Notes: generated by a model not told the origin, from the letters alone. A stretch of 55,704 nucleotides of DNA from a virus (IMGVR_UViG_3300041964_000008:1-55704); one strand, 5' to 3'. Counted from the first letter of the stretch, positions 635-54,929 are shown. Numbers and translations: made by a program.

Positions 635-688
635 CATTATGGGGCATGTATAAGGTGCGAAAGCTGTAAGCCCTTGTAGGGGGCTTAC
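635..688 (-). promoter_or_regulatory. Hairpin plus 26-bp conserved motif (TCGCA-N6-ACA-N5-CATAATG)
   Basis: Copy of the 22-fold repeated motif (635-660) with upstream hairpin (668-686). Confidence 0.8.
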
Positions 689-698
689 AACCGTGACG

Positions 699-950
699 CT
701 AGAGTTTGGTGACGACGATACCGTCCTCGTATGTCGCATCGGGGGCCAGGTTCTTTCCGATCGCGTTCAGGTAGTTCAGCTCGAACTGTCCCAGTCGTGT
801 GTTCTCGTTGTAGAACTCTCGCACGATCTCTTCGGTAGAGACTCGGTGCGAAAAGTGCTGTTCACGATTACGACGAATGAGAGGCTCGAGGCGTTCCATC
901 TGCTCGATCATGATCTCGATGGCCCGCATTTGCGGTTGTGAGAGTGGCAT
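699..950 (-). CDS. Hypothetical protein (MPLSQPQMR...)
   Basis: GAAAGG RBS; cassette position. Confidence 0.75.
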   Translation of the reverse strand: MPLSQPQMRAIEIMIEQMERLEPLIRRNREQHFSHRVSTEEIVREFYNENTRLGQFELNYLNAIGKNLAPDATYEDGIVVTKL

Positions 951-973
951 GGGGTTTACCTTTCTATAGATGT

Positions 974-1024
974 CATTATAGGGCGTGTTCTTTGTGCGAA
1001 ACTGAAAGCCCTTGTGGGGGCTTC
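974..1024 (-). promoter_or_regulatory. Hairpin plus 26-bp motif (TCGCA-N6-ACA-N5-TATAATG)
   Basis: Repeat copy. Confidence 0.8.
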
Positions 1025-1035
1025 CAGTAGAAGGG

Positions 1036-1308
1036 TTACTTCTTGACAATCTCGCAGAACTTGTTCTTCTTGGGAGGAGTGACGAACTCGTAGTCACGGT
1101 TGAACATGTTGTCCGGGCACCAGCAGTTGCCAAGCCCAACGACTGTCGGGGCGTTCTTTCCTCCACCGACGTAGATGGCTTCCGGCTGATTGATGATCAG
1201 CCAGTCGCCGTACGTCTGTGAAGGACCGATCGTCGCGAAGCCACCGGGAAGGCAGGCTACTGCGATCGGATAGGTTTCGGGGGTGATTTGGAGGGCCATC
1301 ATCTTCAT
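1036..1308 (-). CDS. Hypothetical protein
   Basis: ORF fills the space between motif and hairpin. Confidence 0.7.
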   Translation of the reverse strand: MKMMALQITPETYPIAVACLPGGFATIGPSQTYGDWLIINQPEAIYVGGGKNAPTVVGLGNCWCPDNMFNRDYEFVTPPKKNKFCEIVKK

Positions 1309-1338
1309 GAGGGTTTCCGTTCGGGTTGAGGGTTATGT

Positions 1339-1387
1339 CATTAGAGGCCCTGTTTTCCTTGCGAAACCGAAAGCCCTTGTGGGGCTC
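1339..1387 (-). promoter_or_regulatory. Hairpin plus 26-bp motif (TCGCA-N6-ACA-N5-TCTAATG)
   Basis: Repeat copy. Confidence 0.8.
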
Positions 1388-1399
1388 ACGGCTGTGAAA

Positions 1400-1648
1400 C
1401 TACTTCTGATGTTTGGCAACTGCTTCTTCAACGAGATCCTTGATCGTCGCGTTCTCTTCCACAAGCTTATTGATGGCTTGCTTCTGAATGATGACCATCG
1501 ACATGATCGATTCCAAGGTCGTGGTAGAGATTGTGGCTTCTCCACCGTATGACTTGGCAATCGTTCCGGCGAGGCCTTCAACCAGCAAGTCAGCACCATG
1601 GCTGAGTTTGTGGATAACTGCGAGGAATTCGGTGTCGTCTCTTGACAT
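1400..1648 (-). CDS. Hypothetical protein, coiled-coil C-terminus
   Basis: GAAAGGA RBS; cassette position. Confidence 0.75.
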   Translation of the reverse strand: MSRDDTEFLAVIHKLSHGADLLVEGLAGTIAKSYGGEATISTTTLESIMSMVIIQKQAINKLVEENATIKDLVEEAVAKHQK

Positions 1649-1670
1649 GATTGTCCTTTCAGATAGGTTT

Positions 1671-1696
1671 CATTAGAGCGCATGTTACCTACGCGA
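1671..1696 (-). promoter_or_regulatory. 26-bp motif (TCGCG-N6-ACA-N5-TCTAATG)
   Basis: Repeat copy without a hairpin. Confidence 0.75.
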
Positions 1697-1933
1697 CTCA
1701 GGAACTTCTCTCAGCATCTGAAAGATGACGTTCTTGATAGTGGACATACCATTAACCAGACGAACTTTTTCAAGCTCCATCTCAAGCTTGTCCACTTCGT
1801 CTTGACTCAACTCGAAGTGAAATTGATAGTTAGGCTTTGGCTGAACTCGCCTAATGGGCTCAAACATTCTCATGGGGTCTCCTAATAGGTGTTGTTGATC
1901 CCTCAAGACGAGGGGCAGAGCCGGGAGAGTCAC
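1685..1933 (-). CDS. Hypothetical protein (start uncertain)
   Basis: ORF track; co-oriented with neighbours. Confidence 0.55.
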   Translation of the reverse strand: MTLPALPLVLRDQQHLLGDPMRMFEPIRRVQPKPNYQFHFELSQDEVDKLEMELEKVRLVNGMSTIKNVIFQMLREVPESRR

Positions 1934-1962
1934 TTCTTAACCCTGCCCCCCGCGTTCAGGGA

Positions 1963-2121
1963 TCAGCCGGTCTTAGAGAACGGCTTCGCCATCTTGTCGG
2001 TAGCTGACTCGAACGGAATCTCAGATGCCGCACGCTTCGAGATGATGAAGCGAACGACAGTTCCGATCATCAGCAGTACTGCGATGCGGACTGCGACGTC
2101 CTTCCAGGTGAGTTCCTTCAT
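1963..2121 (-). CDS. 52-aa membrane peptide (MKELTWKDVAVRIAVLL...)
   Basis: Read manually; start overlaps the upstream stop (ATGA); hydrophobic helix. Confidence 0.65.
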   Translation of the reverse strand: MKELTWKDVAVRIAVLLMIGTVVRFIISKRAASEIPFESATDKMAKPFSKTG

Positions 2122-5862: not shown

Positions 5863-6138
5863 TCAAGCGTTCCTCCGCTTCTGAATGTAGACCATGGCCT
5901 GATCAGGATTGTTGCAAAGCATGATCGTGTTCTCATCCAGTGCAATGCAAATTTGACCTGATCGAGCTATCTTCCGAGCAAACGTCAAGAGCTCAGCATT
6001 GGGAATGACAACCGTGACCTTTGAGTTCTTGGAAGGTGTCGCCTTCTTACGAGGCTTCTTGGCGACCTTCTTGGCAACCTTCTTGACAGTCTTCTCATCA
6101 AGGCTGCCGGTCTTTTGTACAGCGGTGTCTCTGAGCAT
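5863..6138 (-). CDS. Lysine-rich basic protein
   Basis: GAGGAG RBS; KKVAKKVAKKPRKK tract. Confidence 0.7.
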   Translation of the reverse strand: MLRDTAVQKTGSLDEKTVKKVAKKVAKKPRKKATPSKNSKVTVVIPNAELLTFARKIARSGQICIALDENTIMLCNNPDQAMVYIQKRRNA

Positions 6139-6167: not shown

Positions 6168-6214
6168 AAGAGCCCGTGTAGGCTCTTCTATTATAGGGCT
6201 TGTTATTTCTACGA
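6168..6214 (-). promoter_or_regulatory. 26-bp motif (6189-6214) directly followed by a hairpin (6168-6187)
   Basis: TCGTA-N6-ACA-N5-TATAATA, then AAGAGCC-TACAC-GGGCTCTT-GCTTTT. Confidence 0.7.
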
Positions 6215-9200
6215 TATGAACCACTCGAAATCGCCGAACTTCTGGATGGTCTTGACGGCCTCATCAGCAAGTCTTTCGAAGTACGACATGTTGATGTTGC
6301 CGACTGCTTTCTCACCCAGCTTTTCGACTACGTCGGCCTCGAGCCACAAATATCCCTTAGTGCCGCTAACAGCGTAGTGCTTGTCATCCACGATGCGATA
6401 GAGTGAGGCACCGTTGGCGCCTTCTCTCACAGGGACAAATCTCCCTGTGCGACCGATGAACTTCAAGCTCTTCTTCTCAGGGACTACGGGCTTGTCATGC
6501 TCGAAGTCAAGATATAGAGCGCCCTTCTGTACTTGCTTCGTCTCACAGAAGTCATCGAATACGACTGGCTCATTGCTGAACAGCTTCTTGTACACAAATG
6601 GGTGCTGGAACTGCGCACCCACTGCTTCCCATTTGCCGTCAGACTTCTTCGCAATATAGACCGCGTCATTCACAAGGCAGAACTTGTCGTAGGTAGCCTC
6701 ATGCTCGAAGTCGTACCCATACTTCTCACCAAAGCGAACCACGAACTCACAGATCTCAGGTGTGGCGTTCGGGATCTTGATGGAGTCTGTCTTGATATGA
6801 GCGACGGTGAAGCCCTCAGCCTGCACAGCGTGCTTGAGATCGATCATGAACAGAGCACCGCGCTTAGCAACGATGTTGTCCTGGTTACGTCGATCTCGGA
6901 AAGGCGTGTCGAACTTCGCACTTGTTAATCCATAAACCGTGTTGATCACAATCTTTAGAGCATACGCAAGAGCCTCGGCATGCGCGGGATCCTCAAGATA
7001 TGGAACCAGCTTTCCGTTAAGCATCTGTCGCGCATTGTTATAGTCTCGATGCTTGATAGCCATACGAGCATTCTTCAGATCAGAGAACTTCGGCGTGTAC
7101 TCGTTTCCGAACAAATTCAGCTGTTCGATGGATGTAGGATGCATGGACGCGATGTCCAATACCGCCACATTTTCGTACATACCAGGCTCAGAATAGACGT
7201 ATCCTCCCTCGCCAGGCTCTTCATCGCGATAGTAACTCTTGCCCAATTCGAACCGATAACCAGGAAAGTCCTTAGCCAAGTTCGTGTACTTGAACTGCGA
7301 TTGAGGGTTTCGATCCTTGCCAAATATGATTCGAGCGGTGTGCTTCTGCGTTGTGTCATTGACTGTCAAACCGCTGAGTTCGGCAAGAATCTGACGCGCG
7401 ATGAAGTCCTGCTTCCGTGCATTGAACGTGGCCTCAGTTGTCTCCACGTCATTCACACAGTACTCAACGACCTTGTCCCACTGGTCCTTTGGAACTGGCT
7501 GATCCCAAGGAATATCGAGCTCCACGTGACGAAGCCCTAGCTCGATCTGGAACTTCTTCAGGCTCTGCTTCTTCGAACTGAAGTCGTAGATATCAGTGTA
7601 GGAGATGTTGAACGCCTCACCGAACAGAGCATTGCGATCGTTGTTGATGATCTTCTGGCTCAGCTTGTACAGTTCCTCATTGCTGTAGCCCATGAATCGA
7701 GCGTAGAGGATATGGTTGTCGTACCGGCGATTGTTGAAGCCGATCAGACGGTAGCCTAGAAGAGGCTCCACGTCCTTACCAGGTGGGTTGATCATCTTCT
7801 GGACTTCAGTCGCACCTTCGTACTTCCAGCACACTACGAAGAGGTTAGGATATACCTCCACGTCAAAGAACACCAAGCGCATGTCCTCTGGACCGTTCTT
7901 GTCCGTCACACCTGGGTGGTAGATCGGATCCTTTTCCATGAGGTCGACAATATCCTTGCCCTGGAACTTCATCTGTTGAACGATCTTCAGGCACTGCAGA
8001 GCCTGGTTGGTGCTGTTGTTCGCGAAAGCCATGATCTTCGGCTTCAAATCTGTCAGGTCATACGAGAGACCATCTTCGTATGCCTCGTCCATGATCTTCT
8101 TGATGAAGTCGATCGAGGACTTTGTCCTGGATGTATCTCCTTTCGAAGATTTCGAGCAATCAGGTCACGCATCCCCTTCTCGCTCTGAATGGTCTTTACA
8201 TCCAGCATCTTCTTCTCCTTCAGGGGGAGTCCGGAGGATATGATTCCAATAGGTACGCCGTTACACTTAGTGAGGTCGACGACGTAGAGAGCTATCTCCT
8301 GTGAAGACCTTAACTTCAATTCCTTCAGAGAAGACATTAGAGAGTCGGTCAACATCTCTTCGTAACGGTAATGGAGATGTACTCCGCTCCCGGACTTACT
8401 AAGCTCGGCGTAAGTAGCGGGCCAGACACTTGCGGCTTCGAGATTCCGTTCAAGGGATTTCTCTCCATCCTCGCCTCTCAGATCAAAGTCAATGACAATA
8501 TGATGTCCGGGACCTTGACGAAGTGCAACTCTGACGTGTCGATATCGTCGAGTCTCGTCTCAACCTCGGACCACTTCTTCTTGGGGGTCTCTGCCTTAGT
8601 GGCCCCCTGGGCCGGCATGTTATCAACTCCCAGTCCAGCAAGGACTCCGTCTGATCTAGTACCAACGAGAAGCTAGGAGCGTCTGCAGACGGTTCCTTGA
8701 ACTTGTTGGCGTTGAAGCCCTCGTAATAACTGCGTACAAGCTTCCCGTCACGACGAGCCCGATCCTTAAACGAATCGAAGTAGTTCCGCAGCTCTTCACG
8801 GAACTTGTACTTAGGCATGATCCGCTCGATGCCTGACTCTCCGCAGTACTCCTTGTACAACGCATAGGCCTGCTCCAACGAGGTACCGTCTTGAGCCTTG
8901 AATATGTCGTAGTAGGCCTCGATGAAGTTGAAGAACACGTCCGTCTGAAGCATCATCTCAAGAGGACGATATGCGTTGTAGTAGTTCTTTCCCATGGATC
9001 GATACACCTCAAGGCAGTGATACGCAATAGCCCCTAGTTGAAAGTCGATCTGCGTCATGAGAGTGTTGAAGTGGTTGTTCGGAATATAAACACCTGTCGG
9101 GTGAACATCTATGAGCCGTCGAATGATGCCCGACTTCGAGTCCGAGATCTTGACAGGTTGGTTGGTACCCATGAAGAGAAATGCATTGACCTTGGCCGTG

Positions 9201-9983
9201 TAACTCGACTTGAACTTCTCGTTCATCGTCATGTCTTCATGAGATATGATCGAGTTCAGCCTCGCGTTGTCCTCAATTCGAGACAGGTCACCGTCATGCT
9301 GAATGGCAGCAATCGGATTTCCCTTGAAGACCTCTGTTGCGACTGGCTGTTGCTACTACCAAGAGCCTTTGCTTCAAACGTCGTGGTATAACCGATGAAC
9401 AGCTTCTCGATGATGCGCAGGATGGTGGACTTGCCTGAGGCAGGAGGACCATACAGAACGATGAACTTCTGAATATCCTTGGCATCTCCTGCAACAATGG
9501 CACCAATAGACCATTCGATCTTGGCACGCTCCTCGACGGAGAAGAGCGTGCCGACAAGCTCATCCCAGCACTGTAGTCACCTGGTTCCAACGCGTAGGGA
9601 AGTCGTCGACTGACGTAGTCGTTCTTCTTCACAGGCGTGTTGGCAAAAGTCAGATTCACATCCAGCTGGTGGCTGTTGTCGCCGATCTGACCTATGAACT
9701 TCTGGAACTGCGCCCAACTCTGTGTTTCATACGAGCGCATGTCCTTGACGTGCAACTTCTGACCTGCATAGACCTCTTTCTGAGATTCTTGATGTAGTTC
9801 CTCATCAATCAGTCGGGCAACGTCGTACTCATCATGTGGACCACAGCCCCTTCTTCTCGTCCCAGATGGCATAGAAGTTTCCCCCTCTAACCATGAGATC
9901 AGTCGATCTTCCGACAGTGAAGCCAGGATATAGTTCAATGATTCCGTTCTTCGTCTCCTAGTTCGAATCTGGTAGAAATCCAT
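6209..9983 (-). CDS. Fused SF3 helicase / AEP primase / family B-like DNA polymerase (about 1250 aa, broken by several apparent indel errors)
   Basis: Walker A GPPASGKST (~9424-9450); AEP HIVIDFDL (~8418-8441) and SKSGSGVHLHY (~8368-8400); Exo FDVE, GFNNRRYD, YCVND; Pol DIASMHP, KIVINTVYG, IKTDS. Confidence 0.8.
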
Positions 9984-12539: not shown

Positions 12540-12704
12540 CTCTGTCTCCTAGACATACGTTTTGGGATTGGAGCCGTTGTAAAACGGCGATAACTTGTGT
12601 CTTTGGCATGTTGTCGACCTTGGCGTACCACTGGTCGTCAGCAAAAGCCGTTTTCAATAGTCGCCTCTCCTCTGAAGCTCCTACACGGGTCATGGGTCCT
12701 CTGT

Positions 12705-13367
12705 CTAGTCGTTGATTGGTTCGGGTCGGGGGAGATTGAGCAAATATCCGCCTTCACGAGTTCTTTCAACGCTAGCGCTGCGTAGATCTGTCCAGCCCCA
12801 CCTTTGATCGGTGTATTGGGCACCTACGCCGAGAAATTCATAGAGATCCGCGACTGTGACAATATCGAATTTGACGAGGATTGCGCTGAGGTTATCAAGG
12901 ACATGTTGAGCCTCAGCACGAGATTCCAGGATGATGTCCCTGAAATCGAATGTTGCACGTGAACGATCCGTCGGCTGCTTGTTCGGGATCCTCGGATCAG
13001 ACAAGGGTGAATATGATCCGATAGGAGCCTTACCGATGTTGTGGTACTGCATGCTTCCGAGAGGCTGACCTCCATACATCCGAGGAGCACCTGGATGTCC
13101 GTAGAGTCGTTGGCTCACAGCAGCATTGACCGACTCAAGGATGAGATGCTTTCCCGAAGGCACAAGAATATCCGTCCAGACCGTCATGAAGACGCTCCTA
13201 CTGTCTGGCCCCTTGATGAATATGCTCTTGAAGCGGTCCCATCGTGATCTATCACGCTGGATTACCTTGCCAACGACGATCTTCGAGATGTTCTTCTCTT
13301 CCACCTTCGGGATCGAAGACTTTTGTCGTTGGGTATGACTCTGACTAGGAAATTCACTTTCCGTCAT
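12705..13367 (-). CDS. Hypothetical protein
   Basis: 220-aa ORF; VADLYE..G...WGW motif. Confidence 0.75.
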   Translation of the reverse strand: MTESEFPSQSHTQRQKSSIPKVEEKNISKIVVGKVIQRDRSRWDRFKSIFIKGPDSRSVFMTVWTDILVPSGKHLILESVNAAVSQRLYGHPGAPRMYGGQPLGSMQYHNIGKAPIGSYSPLSDPRIPNKQPTDRSRATFDFRDIILESRAEAQHVLDNLSAILVKFDIVTVADLYEFLGVGAQYTDQRWGWTDLRSASVERTREGGYLLNLPRPEPIND

Positions 13368-13393
13368 GCGGTCTCATTCCTGAGCATAAAACG

Positions 13394-13413
13394 AGAGCCC
13401 TTGTAAGGGGCTC
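13394..13413 (-). terminator. Cassette hairpin
   Basis: GAGCCCC-TTACA-AGGGCTC followed by TCGTTTT. Confidence 0.7.
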
Positions 13414-13426
13414 CCGTTGGTGAATG

Positions 13427-13588
13427 TTACTCCTTTACGGGGGGAGGAGGGGGAGGTGTCGGCGGGTTGTAGTGCTTGTCGATGGCAGCATTAGCTTCCT
13501 TCTCCGTCTTGACCAGGGATCCGATCAGGACTGAGGTTAGGACGCCAAGGCCGGCCCGAACGGCAAGCTTGACAACAGTGGGGTTCAT
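13427..13588 (-). CDS. 53-aa membrane peptide with Pro-rich tail (MNPTVVKLAVR...)
   Basis: Read manually; GAAAGGA RBS; lies between motif and hairpin. Confidence 0.7.
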   Translation of the reverse strand: MNPTVVKLAVRAGLGVLTSVLIGSLVKTEKEANAAIDKHYNPPTPPPPPPVKE

Positions 13589-13615
13589 CTCGTTCCTTTC
13601 CAATAGGTGTACGTT

Positions 13616-13641
13616 CGTTAGAGGGACGGTTTTTTCTGCGA
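13616..13641 (-). promoter_or_regulatory. 26-bp motif (TCGCA-N6-ACC-N5-TCTAACG)
   Basis: Repeat copy. Confidence 0.7.
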
Positions 13642-13642
13642 G

Positions 13643-14098
13643 TTATCCTCGCCCCATGATGCGACGAGCCTTGCGCTTTGCTCGCTCGTTACGCCACCAG
13701 TCCTTCAGCCTCTCGATACGCGGCTTGAGCCACTTACCGATCTCCTTGTCGAGTCCTGTCTGGTGGAGTAGCGACCAGGTCGTCACTACAAGACCGATCG
13801 ATGTGCTCAGGCTTCGCTTGTTGCCCAGGATCAGACCTCGAAGGTTGCGGCTCATGAACTGTGTGCGATCCAGACGCTGACGCTCCTTAGCCGCCTTGAT
13901 GGCATGCTTGGCCATGTCCTGACGGTCGTAGGCAGCCTTCAGCGCCTGCTCGTAGCCAGGAACGCTCTTGATCTTGTGGTTGATTTCCGCCTGCAGAAGC
14001 TTGCGCCTCGTTCCGGCACCCTCGCCGAAGAACATCTCAGCGTAGGCCCATTTCGAGGCGTCCTTCTCGGCGATGCTTTTGATGTTGGTACCGAACAT
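13643..14098 (-). CDS. Hypothetical protein (MFGTNIKS...)
   Basis: AAGGAG RBS before the internal ATG. Confidence 0.75.
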   Translation of the reverse strand: MFGTNIKSIAEKDASKWAYAEMFFGEGAGTRRKLLQAEINHKIKSVPGYEQALKAAYDRQDMAKHAIKAAKERQRLDRTQFMSRNLRGLILGNKRSLSTSIGLVVTTWSLLHQTGLDKEIGKWLKPRIERLKDWWRNERAKRKARRIMGRG

Positions 14099-14124
14099 GG
14101 GGGTCTCCTTTATAGGTGTGATGA

Positions 14125-14457
14125 TCAACGATCTTCGATATCGGTCATGATGTAATGGAACTTCGCAGCCACTTCCGTATCGGGGCAGTCGTATCGCTCC
14201 TTGGCGAGCCAAGAACACAAGCGTTCGGCGTGTTCTCTTCCTTCTGCAGTCGACAGGTTTACCTTGAACGTGACTGTGTACTCCTCGTTTTGATTAAGCA
14301 AATGCCGAACCGAGGATTCGTTAAGACTCATCCTTTCAGCAATTTCGGCAATGGAATAACCCGTATCTTTCAGGCTCCATGCTTCCTTGATGTCTTGTGT
14401 TCTTGCTTCCTGGGACTTCTTGAAGCGTTCAACGCGGTCGCTCATAATATGATCCAA
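14125..14457 (-). CDS. HTH protein resembling an HTH of the phage RNAP
   Basis: LKDTGYSIAEIAERMSLNESSVRHLL versus RNAP LKDKGLSNIAIGEKMGINESSVRSLL. Confidence 0.8.
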   Translation of the reverse strand: MDHIMSDRVERFKKSQEARTQDIKEAWSLKDTGYSIAEIAERMSLNESSVRHLLNQNEEYTVTFKVNLSTAEGREHAERLCSWLAKERYDCPDTEVAAKFHYIMTDIEDR

Positions 14458-16408: not shown

Positions 16409-16636
16409 TCAGGGGGTGGTGGTGTTCGGGGTCTCCGGGTGGAGGTCCGTGACGACGGCCTGAACCTTCTTCTCACGCTTGAGCTTGGAGAGTCCAGCGT
16501 TGATCGCGAGGACGCCCACGCCGGCCAGTGTGGCGACGGTGGCGAACTTCGCGGTCAGCGACTTGGACTCCGGGCTCATCGTGGGGATGGCTTCGGTGAC
16601 GTCGGTGACGGTGGTGTTCTCGGGGGTCTCGGACAT
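16409..16636 (-). CDS. Small membrane protein (cassette gene)
   Basis: AGGAG RBS; hydrophobic FATVATLAGVGVLAI. Confidence 0.7.
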   Translation of the reverse strand: MSETPENTTVTDVTEAIPTMSPESKSLTAKFATVATLAGVGVLAINAGLSKLKREKKVQAVVTDLHPETPNTTTP

Positions 16637-16662: not shown

Positions 16663-16688
16663 CATTAGAGGCCCTGTTTTCTTTGCGA
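16663..16688 (-). promoter_or_regulatory. 26-bp motif
   Basis: TCGCA-AAGAAA-ACA-GGGCC-TCTAATG. Confidence 0.8.
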
Positions 16689-17617: not shown

Positions 17618-18016
17618 GGGGGTCTCCTTGTATAGGGGTCAGCTGCTCTTGCGGGTGAGTGTTCGGATCGTTCGAATGGCTTCCGCAAGAAGAATCAGCT
17701 TCATGCGATCGCGCCGGGACAGAATGAAGGTCATGGCGAACTTCATGCAGATCACTGCCCGATCGTACGTCGTTCGAGCGAAGTACAGACGCACGCCAAG
17801 CCAGAGAAGGCGTAAGCGTACGAGGAATATCATCGGCGCCTCATTCGCGGACGAAGATCCAGATGAGCCAGAGCCCACCCGTGAGCAACGTCATGATGAC
17901 GTCGCCCAAGAAGGCAAGGCATCCGTACTGCTCGAACGTTGGTCTGACCGGACTCGACGTGGCATAGCTCGTCATATCTCATGCGGATCCTTCCAATAGG
18001 GGGGGGTCGAAAAGTG

Positions 18017-18100
18017 TGAGAAGATGTATACGATGGATGGTCGTATCACTTCAAGTTCAGCGGCCGGGTTAGGGCTCGATGACTCATAAGTGTCTTCTCA
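18017..18100 (-). ncRNA. Candidate structured small RNA A
   Basis: Follows motif 18099-18124; terminal stem TGAGAAGA/TCTTCTCA; internal CACTT/AAGTG and ATACGA/TCGTAT stems; downstream T tract; no RBS or ORF. Confidence 0.65.
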
Positions 18101-18134
18101 TTAGGGGGCTTGTTTTTTTCGCGAGTCAAAAATT

Positions 18135-18260
18135 TGAGGAGAGGTATACGGCCCAACGAAAGCTGTATCGTTAACTAGCTGCTTGGTACTTGCTAGCACT
18201 CCGGGTAGGATTCTAACCTACACATTCGTGTCTCGGAAACTCTTTCGAGTTCTCTTCTCA
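18135..18260 (-). ncRNA. Candidate structured small RNA B (four internal hairpins, one T-arm-like)
   Basis: Follows motif 18259-18284; terminal stem TGAGAAGAG/CTCTCCTCA; GTAGG-TTAGAAT-CCTAC; T5 tract after the stem. Confidence 0.7.
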
Positions 18261-18366: not shown

Positions 18367-18391
18367 TTAGAGGCCCTGTTTTCCTTGCGAA

Positions 18392-46237: not shown

Positions 46238-46406
46238 TAGTTCATCCTACTTCTCTTAGACTCTGAAAGACATAGCCAATGGTTTAACCAATCTTTTGCC
46301 TAGTTTAAAAGTGGATTGTTTGTACTAAATCTCCCCCCGGGGCTATTTTTAGAGAGCGGCGATCCAGGGTGGGGGGCGTTTTTTCGAGACCCCCCTCCCC
46401 TGGCTT

Positions 46407-46730: not shown

Positions 46731-49436
46731 TCATCCGCCTAGCTCCTTCTTCAGTGTGGTGAGGGAGACGCCTAGGGCAGCAGCGATCTCGCCTTGGGTG
46801 TAGCCCTGGTCAGCCATCTGTTTCGCTCTGTTGATCTTGGTGGAGGTCATCAGTTTGGTTGAACGGGGGGTTGCAAGAGCCTTCACGATGTCGAGGTCGG
46901 CATTGTCTAGGATTCGTGCTAACTTGGTAGGGCTGATTGCCCCAGCCTGCACGGCTTCCCACTCACGGGGGGTAATTTCGATCTTTTGTTTGCCTGCCCC
47001 CATTCGCATTCGTGCCTCAGTGAGTGCTTGTCCTTCAACCTTCTTGCGTGTAGCAGGGTCCATGTTTGGATTGGAGGCCACTTTAGCAGCGATGGCGGTA
47101 TTTGCAATGACCTGGGCCTGTCTTTCAAGGGGGGCATTGCGTTGCGCAATCTTTAGCTTTGCTGTTAGTGAATCAGCTTCAGCCTTGAATGCCTTGTTAG
47201 CCTGATTGTCATAAGGCTTGTTCTTGATCGAGAGAGTAGACAGACGAGCGTCATTGGCTAAGGCCTTCATTCGATTAGAATGATCGGCATAGATCTTCTC
47301 CATGACTGTAGGGTTAGGCCGTGATGTCAGAGTGTGAGCATCGTTGGTCTCAGCCAACTTAACAGACTGCTCTGTTAGAACCTTACGCAAACCTGTCTTA
47401 GTGAAGTAGTGCTCACCAGTCTCCTTATAGACCTTCTCACCAGTCTTAGGATCTATAGGTCCACCCTCAGAAGCCCTTCGCAGTCTACGCCTAGGTACAT
47501 CCGTTCGAGACGTAGCCCTAGAGATCAGTGTAGAGGATCCACCAGGACGACCACCTGTCTCTTTAGCCTGATACTTACGCTGTAGAGACACGATGTTGTT
47601 GTCTATGAAAGACTGCTTGTAGTTCAACTCATGGTTCACAGCATCGATGACAACCATAGCGTGACGTACAGCAGCAGCGATCTCATCAGGCTTAGCCTTC
47701 TTAAGAGTCATGTCTGTGATGAGGTTAGAGACAGACCCCATCTCAAAGCCCTTCTCACCTTCAGTCATCACCTTCATACCATCAAACTTAGGGTAACTCA
47801 GCTTGGCATCAAAGTCCTTTAGACCCTCTAATCGAGCAGTGGTCTTTATCTTGGGATTAGCGATAGGGTTCGGTATCACAAGGACTGTGTCACCATCAAA
47901 GTCTGCACCAGACAGGTGTCCAGCAACCTTGCTATGGATGCCCACTACATCCTTAGCTAGAGGACCAATGAGCTTTACAGCCTCAGGTTGACGATTGTTG
48001 ACTATCAGTTCAGGGATCTCGAACGTACCACCATGAGGGAAGCGAATCAGAGCGACTCGCTCTCCATGATCGTAGTTGGGCGCATAGATCTCTGTTACCT
48101 TCATGCTGTCGATAGGAAGAAGCACTTGTGTGCTCTGACGTGGCAGCTTGTGTGCCGTTAGCTCTACAGCTAAGGAGTCAGCACTATCAGCATAGCTCTC
48201 AAGAAGCTTCTTCTTGACTGTGGGGTTGGTGAGAGCCTTGATCTCGTCAAGTTCCATCTTTCGCTGTTCATGAGTCATAGACAATTGAGTTTTAGCCAGA
48301 ATAGGACTCTGCTTAGACAGAACTTGTGTAGAGATGACGTTTCTCCACTTGTCCCAGTCACCTTCCTTGTTCACAAGGTTCATTGCAGAGGTAACTTCGA
48401 GAATCGGCCCATCTGGATACTCACGTTTTCCGATTTGCTTGATAGTAGCCCCAAAAGGATTCTCAGGATCATCGGAAATCGGCTTTAGGACAGCTAGCTT
48501 GTCCTTGTACTTAGGATCGCTCTTAAGCTTGGGTGTATGGAATTGAATGTCCGTACCACGAGGAAGATCGTCCTTGTACATGGCCATACCCTTGATGTAG
48601 TGAGTACCATCAACCAAAATTCGAACTTGTGCGTAATTGGCACCTCCCAAAGAGAGGTCATCCTTACCAGGACGCAAATAGACCAATCCATCAAGCTTAG
48701 ATCCACCATCCTCACCGTACACGACCTTGATTCGACTTGAACTTACGGAAAGCGGAGACTTGGTTTGGTAGTACGACCGTCCACCGTCATCAGAGATCGT
48801 CGTGATGTCCTTGATCTGACCGAGATCTTTGACGAGGTCCTTATACGTAGTTCCAGGCTTAGCCAACACCTTAATAGTGGTCTTCTTACGACCACCAGTC
48901 CCGATTGTAGGTGTCTGAACTAGCTCATACGCATAACCTTCGGCTTTTAGGATGCTAACGGCCGTAGCAAGAAACTCCTTGCTCACATAGCGGTGATTCT
49001 CGACACCTCTACCAACATCGATAGCCCCTTTTTCCGCAATCTGGTCACGAAGCATTTGAGCAGTCGCTTTGAGGATGCTGACCTTCTCTAATTCGCCTGG
49101 CTTGAGAAGGCTTCGAACAGAAGACTCGTTAATCCCCATCTTCTCGCCAATAGCGATGTTCGACAGACCTTTATCCTTCAACTTCTGAGCAGTCGCGATG
49201 TCAGCTGCCTTTTTGGCGTTTCGAGCAATGGTCTTCGTGATTCTCAGATCTGTGGTGGACATATCAAGGCCTTTTGCGATTTGAAGATCCGTAAGACCCT
49301 TATCCTTCATCTCCTGGATGTAATCCGTGAACATCTTGCTTCGCTTGGCCTCAGTTCCACCAGAACCCCAAGGATAGCGACCTGACTTTCGAAGAATGCC
49401 GTAGTGTGCCAGATGTGCGCTTTCATCAATGATCAT
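46731..49436 (-). CDS. Putative single-subunit two-barrel RNA polymerase with HTH domains
   Basis: QVR-x7-IKG, LIRFPH and SGADFDGD (47889-47906); two N-terminal and one C-terminal HTH-like segments. Confidence 0.8.
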   Translation of the reverse strand: MIIDESAHLAHYGILRKSGRYPWGSGGTEAKRSKMFTDYIQEMKDKGLTDLQIAKGLDMSTTDLRITKTIARNAKKAADIATAQKLKDKGLSNIAIGEKMGINESSVRSLLKPGELEKVSILKATAQMLRDQIAEKGAIDVGRGVENHRYVSKEFLATAVSILKAEGYAYELVQTPTIGTGGRKKTTIKVLAKPGTTYKDLVKDLGQIKDITTISDDGGRSYYQTKSPLSVSSSRIKVVYGEDGGSKLDGLVYLRPGKDDLSLGGANYAQVRILVDGTHYIKGMAMYKDDLPRGTDIQFHTPKLKSDPKYKDKLAVLKPISDDPENPFGATIKQIGKREYPDGPILEVTSAMNLVNKEGDWDKWRNVISTQVLSKQSPILAKTQLSMTHEQRKMELDEIKALTNPTVKKKLLESYADSADSLAVELTAHKLPRQSTQVLLPIDSMKVTEIYAPNYDHGERVALIRFPHGGTFEIPELIVNNRQPEAVKLIGPLAKDVVGIHSKVAGHLSGADFDGDTVLVIPNPIANPKIKTTARLEGLKDFDAKLSYPKFDGMKVMTEGEKGFEMGSVSNLITDMTLKKAKPDEIAAAVRHAMVVIDAVNHELNYKQSFIDNNIVSLQRKYQAKETGGRPGGSSTLISRATSRTDVPRRRLRRASEGGPIDPKTGEKVYKETGEHYFTKTGLRKVLTEQSVKLAETNDAHTLTSRPNPTVMEKIYADHSNRMKALANDARLSTLSIKNKPYDNQANKAFKAEADSLTAKLKIAQRNAPLERQAQVIANTAIAAKVASNPNMDPATRKKVEGQALTEARMRMGAGKQKIEITPREWEAVQAGAISPTKLARILDNADLDIVKALATPRSTKLMTSTKINRAKQMADQGYTQGEIAAALGVSLTTLKKELGG

Positions 49437-49993
49437 CCTAGGGCCTCCTCTCGAAGAGTCTTGATTCGCTTGTCAAAGGTAACGATTCTGTCCATGATGT
49501 GGAAGATCACGTCGGGGTCCGCCTCAAATAGTTGAATCTCATCGCTCTGGTAGATGCGAAGTTCTGTACGAATCGAGAAAGGACGAAACTTGTACTCGAG
49601 ACAGAACAACGCAGCATAGACCTCTAGCTGTCGAACTGTTGCTGGATGTATTCCCGTTTTCAGATCCGAGATTCGCAATCGATTGCTTCGAAACGAGACA
49701 ACGTCGGCAGTGCCAAACGCGTTTTCCGAATAGAACAAAGGTTGCTCCGGAGTCATCCGGAATCCGATCGAATCGTTGACGTACATGTTCAACGTTTTTG
49801 GTATCCGGGGAAGTTTGACACCAAGACGAATGCACATGTGAGCAAGAACGTGTAACTCAGTACCTCTCTGCGCTGCCTGATTCATGTAGAAGACTCGCTC
49901 GAGTTTGTCTTCATCATAATTCACCCACGACGACTTGCTCGCACTCAAAAAGGCATGTTTGCCTTCAAGCGCGGAATGCTTGTTGAAGCGCAT
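49433..49993 (-). CDS. PD-(D/E)XK / Cas4-like exonuclease
   Basis: RGT.LH, E..L, GTAD, I.DLKTG, QL..YA. Confidence 0.8.
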   Translation of the reverse strand: MRFNKHSALEGKHAFLSASKSSWVNYDEDKLERVFYMNQAAQRGTELHVLAHMCIRLGVKLPRIPKTLNMYVNDSIGFRMTPEQPLFYSENAFGTADVVSFRSNRLRISDLKTGIHPATVRQLEVYAALFCLEYKFRPFSIRTELRIYQSDEIQLFEADPDVIFHIMDRIVTFDKRIKTLREEALG

Positions 49994-50267
49994 CAAGGAC
50001 CTCAGTTTCGTTCTCGGGATAAATGAAAGCACCGAAGGACATTTGGTTTGCCTGTGAAACAAACCACTCTTGGTTGGGCTGTTGCTCAGCGTTGATCTTC
50101 GGTTTGACTTCTAGCATGGCCCATCGATCGTTCCAGAAGATGCTCAGATCCGGAATGCCTTGTTGGTAGTCCGTGTCGTTCTTGAGAATGATGCATCCTG
50201 GAAAGATCTGACGAAGTCGCTTGATAAGACCTTCTTGATAATTCGACTCAAGTTTTGTCTGACGCAT
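49965..50267 (-). CDS. VRR-NUC nuclease / resolvase
   Basis: E...Q, GIPDL, LEVK, PNQ. Confidence 0.8.
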   Translation of the reverse strand: MRQTKLESNYQEGLIKRLRQIFPGCIILKNDTDYQQGIPDLSIFWNDRWAMLEVKPKINAEQQPNQEWFVSQANQMSFGAFIYPENETEVLDALQQAFRA

Positions 50268-50289
50268 CTTCGCCTCCGATCGCAAAAAG

Positions 50290-50345
50290 GGAGAGAACGT
50301 GTTTTTAAAGACGTCCTTCTATTAGGGGGCATGTTTCATCCACGA
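50290..50345 (-). promoter_or_regulatory. 26-bp motif (50320-50345) followed by a leader hairpin, heading the nuclease-RNAP operon
   Basis: TCGTG-N6-ACA-N5-CCTAATA, then GAAGGACGT..ACGTTCTC..CCCTTTTT. Confidence 0.7.
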
Positions 50346-52837: not shown

Positions 52838-52898
52838 GAGGTCCTCTCGTAATAAGTCCGAAAAAACTAGAGGCCTTGTAGGGCTTCTAGTTTCAGAA

Positions 52899-53081
52899 TC
52901 AAACGGTGGGGTAGCCAGGGGGCGGCGGGATGTTCGGTACACGGGTACTGGGATCAGGCGCAGGCATGTTGCGAAGCTTCTTCTTCTCATATCGAGTTGA
53001 TATGATGATGAAGAGGCAGGCTCCAAGTCCGCTACTGATGGCAATGATGCTGTAGTAGTAAACAAACGTGTCGAGTGACAT
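52899..53081 (-). CDS. Membrane peptide with Pro-rich tail
   Basis: AGGAG RBS; cassette. Confidence 0.75.
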   Translation of the reverse strand: MSLDTFVYYYSIIAISSGLGACLFIIISTRYEKKKLRNMPAPDPSTRVPNIPPPPGYPTV

Positions 53082-53166
53082 GGTGTACTCCTGTGTTTGG
53101 GATTCATTATGCACCATGTATACCTCGCGAAAACCGTAAGCCCTTGTAGGCGCTTAGGTTGGTGAA

Positions 53167-53316
53167 TCAGTTCTTGTCGAAGTACTGGGGGTTGTCGAGC
53201 TTCCACTTCACGGCCAGGGTGGTAACCCACAGTGCGATAACGATCATGACGATGATCGCGAACGGCAACATGGTGTTAACAAAGTTGGCCCAGAAGGTAA
53301 AGATGTCTGACAGCAT
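53167..53316 (-). CDS. 49-aa membrane peptide (MLSDIFTFW...)
   Basis: Read manually; AAGGAG RBS; cassette. Confidence 0.75.
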   Translation of the reverse strand: MLSDIFTFWANFVNTMLPFAIIVMIVIALWVTTLAVKWKLDNPQYFDKN

Positions 53317-53398
53317 GGCTGTTCTCCTTAGAATTGGGTTTCATTATGCACCATGTAAATCTCGCGAAAGAGAAAGCCCTTGTGGCCTTCTCTCCCCT

Positions 53399-53548
53399 TC
53401 AGTGGGACGCTTTGTAGCTGTAGTTCAGTTGGAAGCTTCCGCTGTCCGGTGAGTGATTGAAGCAGTAGGGTTCGTCGTCATAAGCGACGTACTCTACGCA
53501 ATCAGGATGCTCACACGGGTGGAAGTCAGGGTTCTGTAACTCTGACAT
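53399..53548 (-). CDS. 49-aa C-x4-C...C-x2-H peptide
   Basis: GAAAGG RBS; cassette. Confidence 0.75.
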   Translation of the reverse strand: MSELQNPDFHPCEHPDCVEYVAYDDEPYCFNHSPDSGSFQLNYSYKASH

Positions 53549-53630
53549 GTCGTGCCTTTCTAATAGGGATTCATTAGAGGACATGTATAACCAGCGAAAC
53601 CGTAAGCCCTTGTAGGGGCTCACGGATGAA

Positions 53631-53816
53631 TCAGTACAGCTGGCCTTTGGCGGCTCGGTGTTTGAGGCTGAGTTCGCGGTTTCTCTGGATCCATTTCGAG
53701 ATCGTCTGTTCGTAGAGGTCGTCGTAGAAGGTGTCCTTCTTATCTGATCTCTTGTAACGTTCGAGCTGTTTCTTCTCCAGATGATTTGCGCGACGAGCAT
53801 ATCCATCGATTGCCAT
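53631..53816 (-). CDS. Basic hypothetical protein
   Basis: GAAAGGA RBS; cassette. Confidence 0.75.
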   Translation of the reverse strand: MAIDGYARRANHLEKKQLERYKRSDKKDTFYDDLYEQTISKWIQRNRELSLKHRAAKGQLY

Positions 53817-53901
53817 CGTGTTCCTTTCTTGTAGTGGATTCATTATAGGGTCTGTTCCTCACGCGAAAACCTATACCCCGTGTAGGGATATAGGGTTGAA
53901 C

Positions 53902-54150
53902 TCAGCGTAGAAGGATGGGCGTGAGCTTGAACTTGCCCTGGGGGATGTCGTAGACGCAGTCGCGTCCGAGCGTCATGACGAGGAAGTCGACCGGCGTCAC
54001 TTCCAGTAGCGTTGCCGACTGTATCGAAGCGTAAAACTTCGAGTACTTTCGGGAAACGATTACGGTGGAAATGACGGCGGCGACTGCAACGGCATGAGGC
54101 GCGTACTTGACGACCTTCTCCTTGACTTCCGAGCGTGTTGGGATGTTCAC
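53902..54150 (-). CDS. Small membrane protein
   Basis: GAAAGGA RBS and GTG start; cassette. Confidence 0.7.
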   Translation of the reverse strand: MNIPTRSEVKEKVVKYAPHAVAVAAVISTVIVSRKYSKFYASIQSATLLEVTPVDFLVMTLGRDCVYDIPQGKFKLTPILLR

Positions 54151-54244
54151 ATTTGTCCTTTCTTGTGGTGGGTTCATTAGAGGACATGTATAACCAGCGG
54201 AAGCTGAAAGCCCTTGTAAGGACTTTCAGATGAATATCAGGGGA

Positions 54245-54421
54245 TCAGCTGCGACAGCCGTAGTTGCTGTTGTGAGCCAACACCCTGACTGAGGAGTTCG
54301 GGTCTGCATAGATCTTGCAACCATACTCACATGAGCTGATTGCGATTTCGTACATGCGTGCACGAACCGTGGGGTCGGGGTGAATGAGCTCGTTGTGGGA
54401 AGTGGTGTACGTGATGTGCAT
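54245..54421 (-). CDS. 58-aa Cys/His peptide (MHITYTTSH...)
   Basis: Read manually; AAGGAG RBS; cassette. Confidence 0.7.
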   Translation of the reverse strand: MHITYTTSHNELIHPDPTVRARMYEIAISSCEYGCKIYADPNSSVRVLAHNSNYGCRS

Positions 54422-54503
54422 ACTTACTCCTTAATGAGGGATTCATTAGAAGCCATGTTCCCTACGCGAAAGCTGAGAGCCTTTGTAGGGCTCTCGCTTG
54501 TGA

Positions 54504-54677
54504 TCAGTACGCACTCCAGTTTGGGGCGTTGACGACGGTGCACGAGGACGTTTCTTCGCAGGACTCCTCGACGACGGCCTCCGCGTTGGCCTCCTGCCCG
54601 TGGTAAAGGGTGGTGGCGAGTGCGGTGACTACGACGAGGAGTACCATGATGAACACGTTCTTGAGTGTGTGGGTCAT
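54504..54677 (-). CDS. Secreted or membrane peptide
   Basis: AAGGAG RBS; N-terminal hydrophobic helix; cassette. Confidence 0.7.
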   Translation of the reverse strand: MTHTLKNVFIMVLLVVVTALATTLYHGQEANAEAVVEESCEETSSCTVVNAPNWSAY

Positions 54678-54929
54678 TACATTACTCCTTGATGGGTGGT
54701 GATACTTGTCATTAGGAGCCATGTAAAACGTGCGAAAACCTAAAGCCCTTGTAGAGCTGTCGGTTGGTGTTGAAGGTTACTGGTCGTTCCAGGCAGGGTC
54801 GAATACGACAACGCAGTCTCCTGTACGGTCGCAGTTCTCCTTCATCTCAGTCGCGTCAGCGTTCCACTCATAGAGAGTGGCACCGGTGACGGTGAGGATG
54901 AAAAGGAGCACAGCAATCGTCAGGTTTCT

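Follow-up and report, generated by a model that had tools for sequence, protein, structure and literature searches.

Coding-strand copies of a tripartite motif, candidate promoters for a single-chain two-barrel RNA polymerase in a siphovirus

Results

RNA polymerase and genome layout

The window, the whole 55,704-nt stretch of DNA analysed here and identical to the full virus record, belongs to a siphovirus in which copies of a conserved motif stand ahead of non-structural genes. The minus strand encodes at 46731-49436 a 901-aa protein which both profile searches and its predicted structure identify as a single-chain two-barrel RNA polymerase (RNAP) of the YonO/QDE-1-like type. The protein matches phrog_4291 over its full length (E=0) and carries a GADFDGD motif at residues 510-516, with DFDGD unchanged in each of 40 aligned homologues, while HTH units are found at both protein ends, around residues 50-110 and 865-899. 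Structural matches of the AF2 model (pLDDT 75.8) are QDE-1 (E 3.5e-8) and the Thermus phage nvRNAP gp64 and gp62 (7e-6 and 6e-5), followed by RDR2, the crAss-like gp66 and beta'. A T7-type identity was rejected, given the two-barrel fold, the DFDGD motif and the lack of any T7-type RNAP family match in a profile search of the window proteins. Searches of PDB sequences with the RNAP gave no match, and Pfam and PDB sequence comparisons revealed no sequence-level match to YonO, which has no assigned Pfam family.

Comparison with relatives places a conserved cos element at 46331-46403 (minus strand), and if the genome ends as cultured relatives physically do, its termini would lie at about 46353|46352. 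With such ends the record would be circularly permuted, and the motif-free block described below would therefore be the left (late) arm. The TMP in the window matched TMP_3 only, and no virion RNAP was seen in the window when the TMP was checked.

A fixed-spacing motif on one strand

The pattern TCGYN7ACMN5YMTAAYR has 21 exact matches in the window, all on the minus (coding) strand and none on the forward strand, against a chance expectation of 0.02 and a maximum of one in 100 dinucleotide shuffles; read backwards as a control, the pattern gave one forward and no reverse match in the whole record. One further copy (54175-54200) has CCGC at its front and otherwise conforms. The spacing is constant, with 11 bp from T1 to A12 and 10 bp from A12 to T22, so both the 22 minus-strand copies of the first-pass annotation and its invariant spacing, with blocks 10-11 bp apart, were reproduced. 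Positions G16, C18, C19, G26 and A27 are additionally conserved, and where position 26 is an A (copies 6189, 18841 and 50320) a G follows at position 27. Scores of a 36-nt weight matrix made from the 22 window sites are bimodal: the sites themselves reach 25.2-42.7 bits and are cleanly apart from the remaining sequence, where the sole additional weak site, 19177-19202 on the minus strand (15.7 bits), retains TCGC, ACA and TCTAA and ends in AAAAT, not TGA, and everything else on both strands stays below 8 bits. With a threshold of 8 bits the scan found no site on either strand of the 19.7-46 kb structural block, which had already been described as free of the motif.

Placement of the copies

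In 17 of the 22 copies position 26 lies 23-34 nt from an SD-led start codon, in two the distance is 51-53 nt with a leader hairpin intervening, and three (18365, 18259 and 18099) lead into structured non-coding stretches, which bears out the earlier view that all copies sit at or just upstream of gene or RNA starts. GC hairpins stand ahead of 13 copies. All features in this section are on the minus strand and are given by falling coordinate, each copy with its score, the next ORF and the distance to it from position 26.

The hairpin 54737-54765 (loop region CTACAAG) ends just ahead of copy 54710-54735 (35.0 bits; ORF 54504-54677, 57 aa, 33 nt), and 54470-54499 (loop CTACAAA) adjoins copy 54444-54469 (38.1 bits; 54245-54421, 58 aa, 23 nt). 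The CCGC copy (36.7 bits; 53902-54150, 82 aa from a GTG, 25 nt) has hairpin 54204-54229 (TTACAAG) ahead of it, the TATAAT-type copy 53841-53866 (36.5 bits; 53631-53816, 61 aa, 25 nt) has 53870-53894 (loop TACAC), and copy 53572-53597 (40.8 bits; 53399-53548, 49 aa, 24 nt) has 53600-53625 (loop CTACAA). Copy 53342-53367 (36.2 bits; 53167-53316, 49 aa, 26 nt) is adjoined by 53368-53394 (loop ACAAG), and 53132-53160 (CTACAAG) is ahead of copy 53105-53130 (37.0 bits; 52899-53081, 60 aa, 24 nt).

Copy 50320-50345 (31.9 bits), of the TAATAGAAGG class, is directly followed by a terminator- or attenuator-like leader hairpin with a T-run (50284-50319). This promoter would drive an endonuclease (49965-50267), an exonuclease (49433-50062) and the RNAP, whose gene itself lies downstream of a copy. 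The syntenic counterpart in relatives lies about 900 nt ahead of the RNAP start, and at these sites the consensus is a leader whose T-run comes about 35-42 nt past the promoter.

The first copy past the structural/lysis block is 19596-19621 (30.0 bits; 19278-19571, 97 aa, 25 nt), followed by 19098-19123 (30.7 bits; 18901-19068, 55 aa, 30 nt), the TAATAG-type copy 18841-18866 (34.9 bits; 18667-18816, 49 aa, 25 nt), adjoined by hairpin 18867-18897 (loop TACAC), and 18603-18628 (31.4 bits; 18430-18576, 48 aa, 27 nt), adjoined by 18629-18667 (loop TACAT). The copies preceding non-coding units 1 to 3 are 18365-18390 (42.3 bits; hairpin 18392-18423, loop CCCAACAC, ahead of it), 18259-18284 (42.7 bits) and 18099-18124 (36.9 bits). 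Further along are 16663-16688 (39.0 bits; 16409-16636, 75 aa, 27 nt), 13616-13641 (27.5 bits; 13427-13588, 53 aa, 28 nt), the TAATAG-type copy 6189-6214 (25.2 bits; 5863-6138, 91 aa, 51 nt), followed by a leader hairpin with a T-run at 6168-6187, and 1671-1696 (34.5 bits; 1400-1648, 82 aa, 23 nt). Hairpin 1365-1393 (loop CACAA) adjoins copy 1339-1364 (41.5 bits; 1036-1308, 90 aa, 31 nt), 1001-1028 (loop CCACAA) is ahead of 974-999 (32.8 bits; 699-950, 83 aa, 24 nt) and 662-692 (loop CCTACAA) ahead of 635-660 (37.2 bits; 329-601, 90 aa, 34 nt). The hairpins just 3′ of promoters 6189 and 50320 might just as well terminate transcripts arriving from upstream, in which case RNA starting at about position 32 would escape them.

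Non-coding units

Unit 1 (18292-18365), a predicted RNA with neither an Rfam nor a tRNA match, has an outer helix AGACCATG/CATGGTCT from position 27. The outer helix of unit 2 (18127-18259) runs from G26 and closes just 5′ of AAATTTTT, and the core of the unit, GAGACACGAATGTGTAGGTTAGAATCCTACCC, is common to Avazak, Truckee and L105. In unit 3 (18010-18099) the helix GAGAAGA/TCTTCTC, likewise from G26, is followed by ACACTTTT. In MFE folds of the non-coding units that follow a promoter, in the window as well as in Truckee and P092, the outermost helix has its first base at position 26 or 27 and ends just 5′ of a T-run, in agreement with the earlier remark that RNA stems start at the final TG of the motif. 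A helix of this type of at least 7 bp occurs in 15 of 118 distinct sites, starting at position 26 in seven, at 23-25 in four and at 28-31 in four.

Distribution in relatives

Relatives that infect Streptomyces, Arthrobacter, Gordonia and Bifidobacterium carry the motif too, with strand and genome arm unchanged, and a variant form of it occurs in Lactococcus. Iterated matrix scans gave coding-strand-only sites in all six phages: 23 in the window, 7 in Streptomyces RosaAsantewaa, 11 in Arthrobacter Truckee, 15 in Gordonia Avazak (one probably false), 7 in Bifidobacterium BitterVaud1 and 10 in Lactococcus P092, which retains ACAtaCCCTATAATGA and has TTTTAAG in place of the TCGC of the others. Among 80 IMG/VR loci retrieved via the RNAP, matches lie on the RNAP strand in 46 and on the opposite strand in none. 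In the other direction, a scan of viral contigs with TCGCN7ACANGN3TATAATGA returned at least 107 viral stretches and only the RNAP-encoding lineage. The RNAP is present in 35 of the first 50 of these records, the other 15 being fragments 11-69% complete, and in 20 of 20 records at least 90% complete, so the co-occurrence of motif and enzyme that the first-pass annotation had suggested looking for was indeed found. By these scans, the motif appears specific to the polymerase-encoding lineage. Co-occurrence is nevertheless unable to single out the RNAP, because it is a core gene of the lineage, distributed much like the primase/polymerase (250 versus 253 records).

Discussion

A promoter function of the motif copies is supported by their fixed format, their confinement to the coding strand and their regular SD/ATG distance. 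We consider it probable, at roughly 0.6, that the 22 copies and the weak one are the promoters of the right, non-structural arm and are cognate to the 901-aa phage RNAP. The promoter-like format, strand, start-codon distance and lineage specificity of the earlier proposal of a cognate phage promoter all stood, whereas its assignment to the RNAP is not separable by co-occurrence from one to other core genes. We infer that the phage rather than the host RNAP binds the motif, and propose on the same footing where RNA starts, what the HTH units do and how the late genes are reached. The fused HTH modules would make contact with TCGC (-25 to -22) and ACA/G (-14 to -10), two duplex blocks on one helix face. 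The A/T-rich YMTAAT block would serve as the melting region. RNA would start at the purine right after YMTAAT, at G26, or at G27 where position 26 is an A, and transcripts would open with GAGACCC or GAGAAGA, with the start codon 23-34 nt on.

Promoters of the T7/SP6 type are about 30 bp long, lineage-specific and repeated many times along one strand; transcription starts at a G directly behind an A/T-rich stretch, and the first transcribed bases are conserved. The window motif has a similar architecture (about 30 bp, A/T-rich before G, one strand), although it consists of three separated blocks instead of one contiguous 23-bp element, and the two-barrel enzyme is unrelated. The Thermus phage P23-45 nvRNAP gp64, a structural neighbour of the AF2 model (8f72, 8f5m), is likewise a small two-barrel non-virion RNAP, and its dedicated promoter motif is described as derived from 5′-end mapping and co-occurrence with the enzyme (PMC10770324). 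According to the same account its promoters are GC-rich, unlike the window motif, and the first transcripts come from another RNAP, carried in the virion as a fusion with the tape measure; no such enzyme was seen in the window.

YonO of the Bacillus prophage SPbeta resembles the window RNAP as a siphovirus-encoded single polypeptide of about 840-900 aa with a catalytic DxDGD loop and as distant kin of multisubunit RNAPs and RNAi RdRPs; the YonO-like group includes relatives of phage 1706 (Ruprich-Robert & Thuriaux 2010, PMC2919709). Fused N- and C-terminal HTH units, in contrast, have been noted for the clade of the window RNAP only (Koert et al.). As described by Forrest et al. 2017 (PMC5467207), YonO transcribes the late genes of SPbeta as a single operon with one start site, and the promoter sequence is given there as unknown, whereas the window has about 22 putative promoters for the non-structural arm. 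By analogy, this relative, the only one characterised, argues against the cognate reading, since YonO serves late genes and the late block is here without the motif. The same contrast lends weight to the alternative of host sigma-A promoters, in which the phage RNAP would work from a different promoter, perhaps, like YonO, from just one for the late genes.

In that alternative, the main rival though in our view rather unlikely, YMTAAT would be the -10 hexamer, with the start 6-8 nt on. TCGC and ACA would be recognised by some phage factor, which may be the 901-aa protein itself, its HTH domains serving to activate transcription or to appropriate sigma in the manner of MotA at T4 middle promoters. 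Actinobacterial promoters often depend on a -10 element alone. Host sigma-A is still in play because in four of the six phages the 3′ block matches the sigma-A optimum TATAAT perfectly, with TANNNT at positions 20-25 in Truckee (11/11), Avazak (13/15), BitterVaud1 (6/7) and P092 (10/10). The position of the RNAP gene behind a copy points the same way, as does the failure of sigma-70-type pattern searches to find a second promoter class, the matches being at chance level (9 versus 9.8; 17 versus 11.9 ± 3.9). However, just 5 of 23 window sites and 2 of 7 RosaAsantewaa sites have TANNNT; the '-11' position is variable in these two phages, being C in 13 of the 22 window copies and C or T in many copies, and the block reads TTAAAT or TTATAT in 5 of 7 RosaAsantewaa sites. 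The copies have no TTGACA-like hexamer at 16-18 bp and no TGn extension, and both the -35 element and TGn are missing from those of the Lactococcus phage P092 too, where one of them is normally expected. The fixed-spacer upstream blocks, moreover, are identical across phages of four actinobacterial genera.

The start point bears on the same choice. Directly after the hexamer come the invariant G26/A27 (both positions hold a purine in 72 of 72 sites of the six phages), and conservation extends to about position 33, with GAGACCC or GAGAAGA immediately 3′ of the motif. At positions 31-33 the purine content is 36-50%, and C-runs occupy the start positions expected for sigma-A in Avazak and RosaAsantewaa, where only 4 of 14 and 1 of 7 sites have any purine there. 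From these patterns we favour a start at the motif end over a sigma-70-type start 6-8 nt later; this earlier suggestion gains from the purines, the RNA helices from position 26 and the missing -35 element, and is weakened by TATAAT in four of the six phages.

It is quite improbable that the copies are operator-type sites for the HTH domains or another phage regulator, overlapping weak promoters and conserved for repression or timing. Such a role would fit the location of all three blocks on a single helix face and the several HTH units in the most conserved non-structural protein, but not the strict orientation on the coding strand, the fixed 23-34 nt to start codons, the conservation continuing into the transcribed GAGACCC, the placement before tRNA and ncRNA units or the lack of an accompanying separate promoter element. 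The 32-bp intergenic repeat of cluster AU Arthrobacter phages is very probably the same element as the window motif, since the RNAP-bearing relatives include AU phages and Truckee has the motif at 28.9-33.9 kb. The Giantsbane preprint (10.1101/2020.01.10.891226), whose account of the repeat draws no polymerase or transcription link, reads it as a recombination boundary sequence flanking genes rearranged between phages, and window copies likewise flank small, variable genes, but boundary sequences shuffling gene cassettes with no transcription role are scarcely credible, as they leave the single orientation, the fixed SD/ATG distance, the preceding terminator hairpins and the same blocks in phages with RNAPs only 36-54% identical unexplained, and a promoter array may itself give rise to recombination between its repeats.

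If the copies are promoters of the phage RNAP, the 27-kb motif-free late block would be served by another signal, or else polymerases from 50320, the last promoter, would read through the RNAP gene and over the joined cos site to reach it. The RNAP gene lying behind that copy, with no other promoter type found, implies that the host enzyme would read at least some copies or that the RNAP would enter with the DNA. The GC hairpins before 13 copies would terminate the preceding transcript, and most of the small genes would therefore be single promoter-terminator units.

Copies of the motif and their surroundings

The first-pass annotation had described 22 minus-strand copies of a rigidly spaced tripartite motif, with none between 19.7 and 46 kb, and both statements were confirmed. 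Across the entire IMG/VR virus record (55,704 bases, rated 93% complete) TCGYN7ACMN5YMTAAYR is matched exactly 21 times, 21 on the reverse and 0 on the forward strand, against 0.02 expected from dinucleotide shuffles, while copy 54175, which begins CCGC, is the 22nd site. In a 36-nt weight matrix derived from the 22 copies these score 25-43 bits, a weak additional copy at 19177 (minus strand) scores 15.7 bits, and everything else on both strands stays below 8 bits; this clean split makes the copies a discrete set and the 19.7-46 kb block a region without the motif. The matrix adds G16, C18, C19 and A27 to the conserved positions listed originally, and the 3′ ending of the copies is coupled, being either TAAT-GA or TAAT-AG. 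In 17 copies a start codon led by a Shine-Dalgarno sequence (SD) lies 23-34 nt from position 26, the base right after the TAAT block; in two others the start codon is 51-53 nt away, with a hairpin and a T-run between, and three are followed by structured non-coding stretches. That the copies act as promoters is well supported.

Directly 5′ of 13 copies stands a GC hairpin with (C)TACAAG or a near variant in the loop region (for example at 53600-53625 and 662-692). The hairpin top, CCC(N)ACAAGGG, is conserved in sequence and is also found 5′ of three of the 11 promoters in the Arthrobacter phage Truckee and three of the 15 in the Gordonia phage Avazak, and was not seen in RosaAsantewaa, BitterVaud1 or P092, further cultured relatives; this tentatively suggests a stop or processing signal recognised by its sequence rather than a generic terminator.

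The minus-strand stretch 18010-18365 holds three non-coding units in tandem, about 75-135 nt long and each led by a promoter. A tRNA scan gave no genes, and Rfam gave no matches at the gathering threshold over the window or at E<=1 over 17950-18420. The core of the second unit, GAGACACNAATGTGTAGGT..AATCCTACCC, is common to Avazak, Truckee and an IMG/VR locus, L105; the counterparts in P092 are tRNA genes, and their 5′ leader base-pairs with their 3′ trailer. In such units the outermost minimum-energy helix has position 26 as its first base and ends immediately ahead of a T-run, as seen in window units 18259 and 18099 (in 18365 from A27), in three Truckee units and in the P092 tRNA unit. In a systematic count, 15 of 118 distinct sites have a terminal helix of at least 7 bp, starting at position 26 in seven, at 23-25 in four and at 28-31 in four; the starts at 23-25 may be explained by pairing of A23-A24 with the adjacent T-run.

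The window polymerase

The 901-aa RNA polymerase (RNAP) ORF at 46731-49436 (minus strand) aligns with phrog_4291 from end to end (E=0), and a PHROG search revealed additional HTH matches near residues 70-115. The sequence GADFDGD at residues 510-516 holds the catalytic DxDGD loop as DFDGD (512-516), which is unchanged in all 40 sequences of the alignment from which an AlphaFold model was built (pLDDT 75.8, pTM 0.57). The top Foldseek matches of the model, ranging in E from 3.5e-8 to 4e-4, include QDE-1 as the best (3.5e-8), gp64 and gp62, the non-virion RNAPs of P23-45-type Thermus phages (7e-6 and 6e-5), and plant RDR2, with weaker matches to the P23-45 and crAss-like virion RNAPs and bacterial beta′. 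The model contains the double-psi beta-barrel fold, and since whole-chain TM-scores are only about 0.3, the structural match rests on the catalytic core; PDB searches with the protein sequence and a profile gave chance matches only. The match agrees with earlier literature: Ruprich-Robert & Thuriaux (2010) list the phage 1706 protein among the YonO-like families (PMC2919709), and Koert et al. describe the protein of this supercluster as a putative RNAP that bears HTH domains at either end, and as a signature gene of the supercluster (10.1101/842583). By motif and fold the protein is a YonO/QDE-1-like two-barrel RNAP, with putative promoter-specific, DNA-dependent RNA synthesis. A T7-type RNAP was rejected, as Pfam gave HTH families alone, at the C-terminus, and the fold is two-barrel.

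Within residues 1-28 (window 49350-49436), the peptide ..HYG..R.SGRYPWGSGG is nearly invariant among 40 homologues and recognisable in P092, and the model has a pLDDT below 50 over residues 1-20. The peptide could be an interaction or targeting signal and bears on the question of RNAP packaging.

Conservation of the motif among related phages

RNAP homologues of 36-54% identity were found in 250 cultured phage records, with hosts that include Arthrobacter, Gordonia, Streptomyces, Lactococcus, Curtobacterium, Rhodococcus, Microbacterium, Bifidobacterium and Faecalibacterium; a megablast of 6 kb against cultured phages gave no match. An iterated matrix scan of six genomes identified 23 sites in the window, 7 in RosaAsantewaa (Streptomyces), 11 in Truckee, 15 in Avazak, 7 in BitterVaud1 (Bifidobacterium) and 10 in P092 (Lactococcus), with the motif confined to the coding strand and the right arm; one of the Avazak sites, within the portal gene, is probably false. 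The TCGC, ACA and 3′ blocks are retained in the actinophages, and P092 retains ACAtaCCCTATAATGA, with TTTTAAG replacing the TCGC of the other phages. The TCGC loss in Lactococcus phages could not be linked to loss of an HTH unit, P092 having all three units.

Among 80 IMG/VR loci recovered via the RNAP (53-60% identity), 46 show matrix matches on the strand of the RNAP gene at a threshold of 10 bits or more, and none shows one on the other; these matches include a syntenic motif copy about 900 nt 5′ of the RNAP start. Scanning 2.9 million viral contigs with the motif alone yielded at least 107 stretches. Whole records were tested by profile search for the first 50 of 80 listed loci, and the RNAP was present in 35; the 15 motif records without it are fragments of 11-69% completeness. 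The first-pass annotation had named a motif common in RNAP-less relatives as the result that would speak against its reading, and this was not observed, all 20 of the records at least 90% complete among these 50 having the RNAP. No close relatives without RNAP were found in the phage collection, where 253 records carry the primase/polymerase (at least 80% cover) and 250 carry the RNAP, with equal host tallies. Because the RNAP is a core gene and the primase/polymerase is spread alike, the co-occurrence points to the lineage and not to one protein.

The promoter preceding the endonuclease-exonuclease-RNAP genes (50284-50345 with its leader, minus strand), which has syntenic sites in the IMG/VR loci L009-L088, forms its own class with the signature TAATAGAAGG / TATAATAGAAGG. 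In the consensus of 39 syntenic sites a T-run follows about 35-42 nt downstream, just before the SD, and several single leaders fold as a hairpin, so the leader looks like an attenuator controlling RNAP expression. One of the IMG/VR loci, L027, closes 3′ of the RNAP gene with more than 1 kb of near-pure A/T-rich low-complexity sequence (12700-14154), probably an assembly artefact.

Genome organization and the cos element

Every gene in the window is on the minus strand. The motif-free block contains the genes for the tape measure, large terminase and portal, and the motif-bearing parts contain those for the helicase, HNH, endonuclease, exonuclease, single-strand annealing protein and primase/polymerase. 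In the cultured relatives the RNAP gene is the final large gene at the right end, and the physical ends fall inside a conserved element composed of a G-run, TCTCGCAAAA, a C-run, TCTGCATCGCC, an A/T-rich stretch and CCCCGGGGG. The ends of RosaAsantewaa, Truckee, Avazak and even P092 lie immediately 3′ of ...CTGCATCGCC(N4-5), and the left end in these relatives opens with an A/T-rich run followed by CCCCGGGGG. This cos element is present in the window in joined form at 46403-46331 (minus strand), so the record is circularly permuted, with genome ends predicted near 46353|46352. The true left arm would then be 46237 down to about 19700, carrying the late genes and no motif, and the right arm 19621 down to 1 and 55704 down to 46407, carrying the 22 promoters, with the RNAP last.

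A second copy of TCTAAAAAT ... CCCCGGGGGGA, the left cos end sequence, is located at 19130-19202 (minus strand), at the late/early border and adjoining the weak promoter copy; GCCCGGGGGAGATTTT stands at the corresponding position of Truckee, and P092 has repeated TCCCGGA boxes within a 360-bp spacer 5′ of the RNAP operon. The copy at 19130-19202 may be a protein-binding box. The primase/polymerase at 6215-9983 (minus strand) is collinear with a 1275-aa RosaAsantewaa protein and is split over at least five frame segments (-1/-2, -3, -2, -1, -3), reflecting either assembly indel errors or a broken gene.

Host or phage enzyme

The promoters are probably read by the phage RNAP, a reading to which a probability of about 0.6 is given; of the original claim, the promoter part is well supported and the assignment of the enzyme indirectly supported. 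That the host RNAP with a phage factor reads them is considered unlikely. Four of the six phages have precisely TATAAT as their 3′ block, as suits host sigma-A, and TANNNT (A at -11, T at -7) fits 40 of the 43 sites outside the window and RosaAsantewaa; however, it fits just 5 of 23 sites in the former and 2 of 7 in the latter, and ‘-11’ is C in 13 of the 22 window copies. A TTGACA-like -35 hexamer is absent at 16-18 bp, where the positions read (G/T)NTTTC, and the copies in the Lactococcus phage lack a -35 element as well as a TGn extension. Across both motif-bearing parts of the window, and in P092 24300-30300 (22 vs 26.6), sigma-70-type matches occur about as often as chance predicts, and the consensus scan flagged none of the 22 copies through its own 3′ block, the two rows overlapping copy 18603 doing so via another downstream hexamer, TACAAT. 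A sigma-A start, usually a purine 6-8 nt beyond the -10 element, would be expected at positions 31-33, which are 36-50% purine and are a C-run in Avazak and RosaAsantewaa, whereas a purine occupies both position 26 and position 27 at each of the 72 sites (72 of 72). Conservation continues downstream as GAGACCC or GAGAAGA. These purines and the RNA helices lend indirect support to the proposal that initiation occurs at the motif end rather than at a sigma70 start.

The host enzyme is favoured by the copy standing 5′ of the RNAP gene itself with other promoter types not found, and by YonO, the sole studied relative, serving one late operon. For the RNAP gene, canonical sigma-70 scans revealed no promoter of host type, and the syntenic ‘-900’ site has no second upstream -10-like TANNNT consensus, showing a weak A/T-rich tendency only. 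Dual use, with the host RNAP acting first at a few TATAAT copies and the phage enzyme then at all, would reconcile most points. T4 MotA-type middle promoters have an activator box in place of the -35 element and an intact TAnnnT -10; here fixed upstream blocks are present, and most window and RosaAsantewaa copies do not fit the TAnnnT -10 (the search for MotA/AsiA-like genes comprised PHROG scans of 20 ORFs). N4-type hairpin promoters need a hairpin at every site, whereas here hairpins accompany 13 of 22 copies and lie outside the conserved blocks.

Among known systems, the P23-45 study provides a precedent in which 5′ mapping and co-occurrence served to link motifs to two-barrel phage RNAPs (PMC10770324), and the YonO study left the promoter sequence of that enzyme open (PMC5467207). 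In the yonN-yonK gap of SPbeta, where the YonO start site has been reported, a look-alike GGCTTATAATGGG occurs at about 9850-9900 of the SPbeta region L094 (minus strand; 13.5 bits, 3′ half-matrix); this is the best partial match in the yonO-yonK region and equals the chance expectation for 70 kb. A 32-bp intergenic repeat of cluster AU Arthrobacter phages, called a recombination boundary sequence (10.1101/2020.01.10.891226), is very probably the same element. No description of the motif as a promoter was found in the text of the literature searched: the available text on the HTH-bearing clade of actinophages and 1706-like phages only terms the protein a putative polymerase and lacks the word ‘promoter’ (10.1101/842583), and a 2026 Rhodococcus phage paper does not mention the motif.

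Proposed mechanism and implications

If G26 is +1, TCGC would occupy -25 to -22, ACA -14 to -12 and TAAT, the presumed melting stretch, -4 to -1. The blocks are 11 and 10 bp apart and so on a single helix face, an arrangement that suits recognition by the enzyme's individual HTH units. A tentative and rather doubtful model is that the HTH modules act in cis like sigma on a three-block duplex promoter, recognised on one DNA face, with the start one base after TAAT. The hairpins 5′ of 13 copies would terminate the preceding transcript, and the late arm, having no copy, may be reached by transcripts that run on through the RNAP gene and across the joined cos site, or may use an unrecognised signal close to the left end.

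That a phage polymerase has promoters of its own is already known in kind, but if the HTH model above is true, the motif would give the YonO/QDE-1-like single-chain two-barrel RNAPs their first promoter consensus. A 36-bp consensus and a predicted start base in many cultivable phages make several questions directly testable, namely whether a 100-kDa relative of cellular RNAP recognises promoters free of sigma, whether fused HTH domains are the recognisers, and how the phage programme is started; the element could also be a compact orthogonal expression system for Gram-positive hosts. For the phages themselves, the model would mean that a supercluster of at least 250 cultured genomes, infecting Actinobacteria and Firmicutes, runs its non-structural programme without host sigma, that the late genes might follow too by read-through over the joined cos site, and it could help to explain how about 50% GC is kept in hosts of 65-72% GC.
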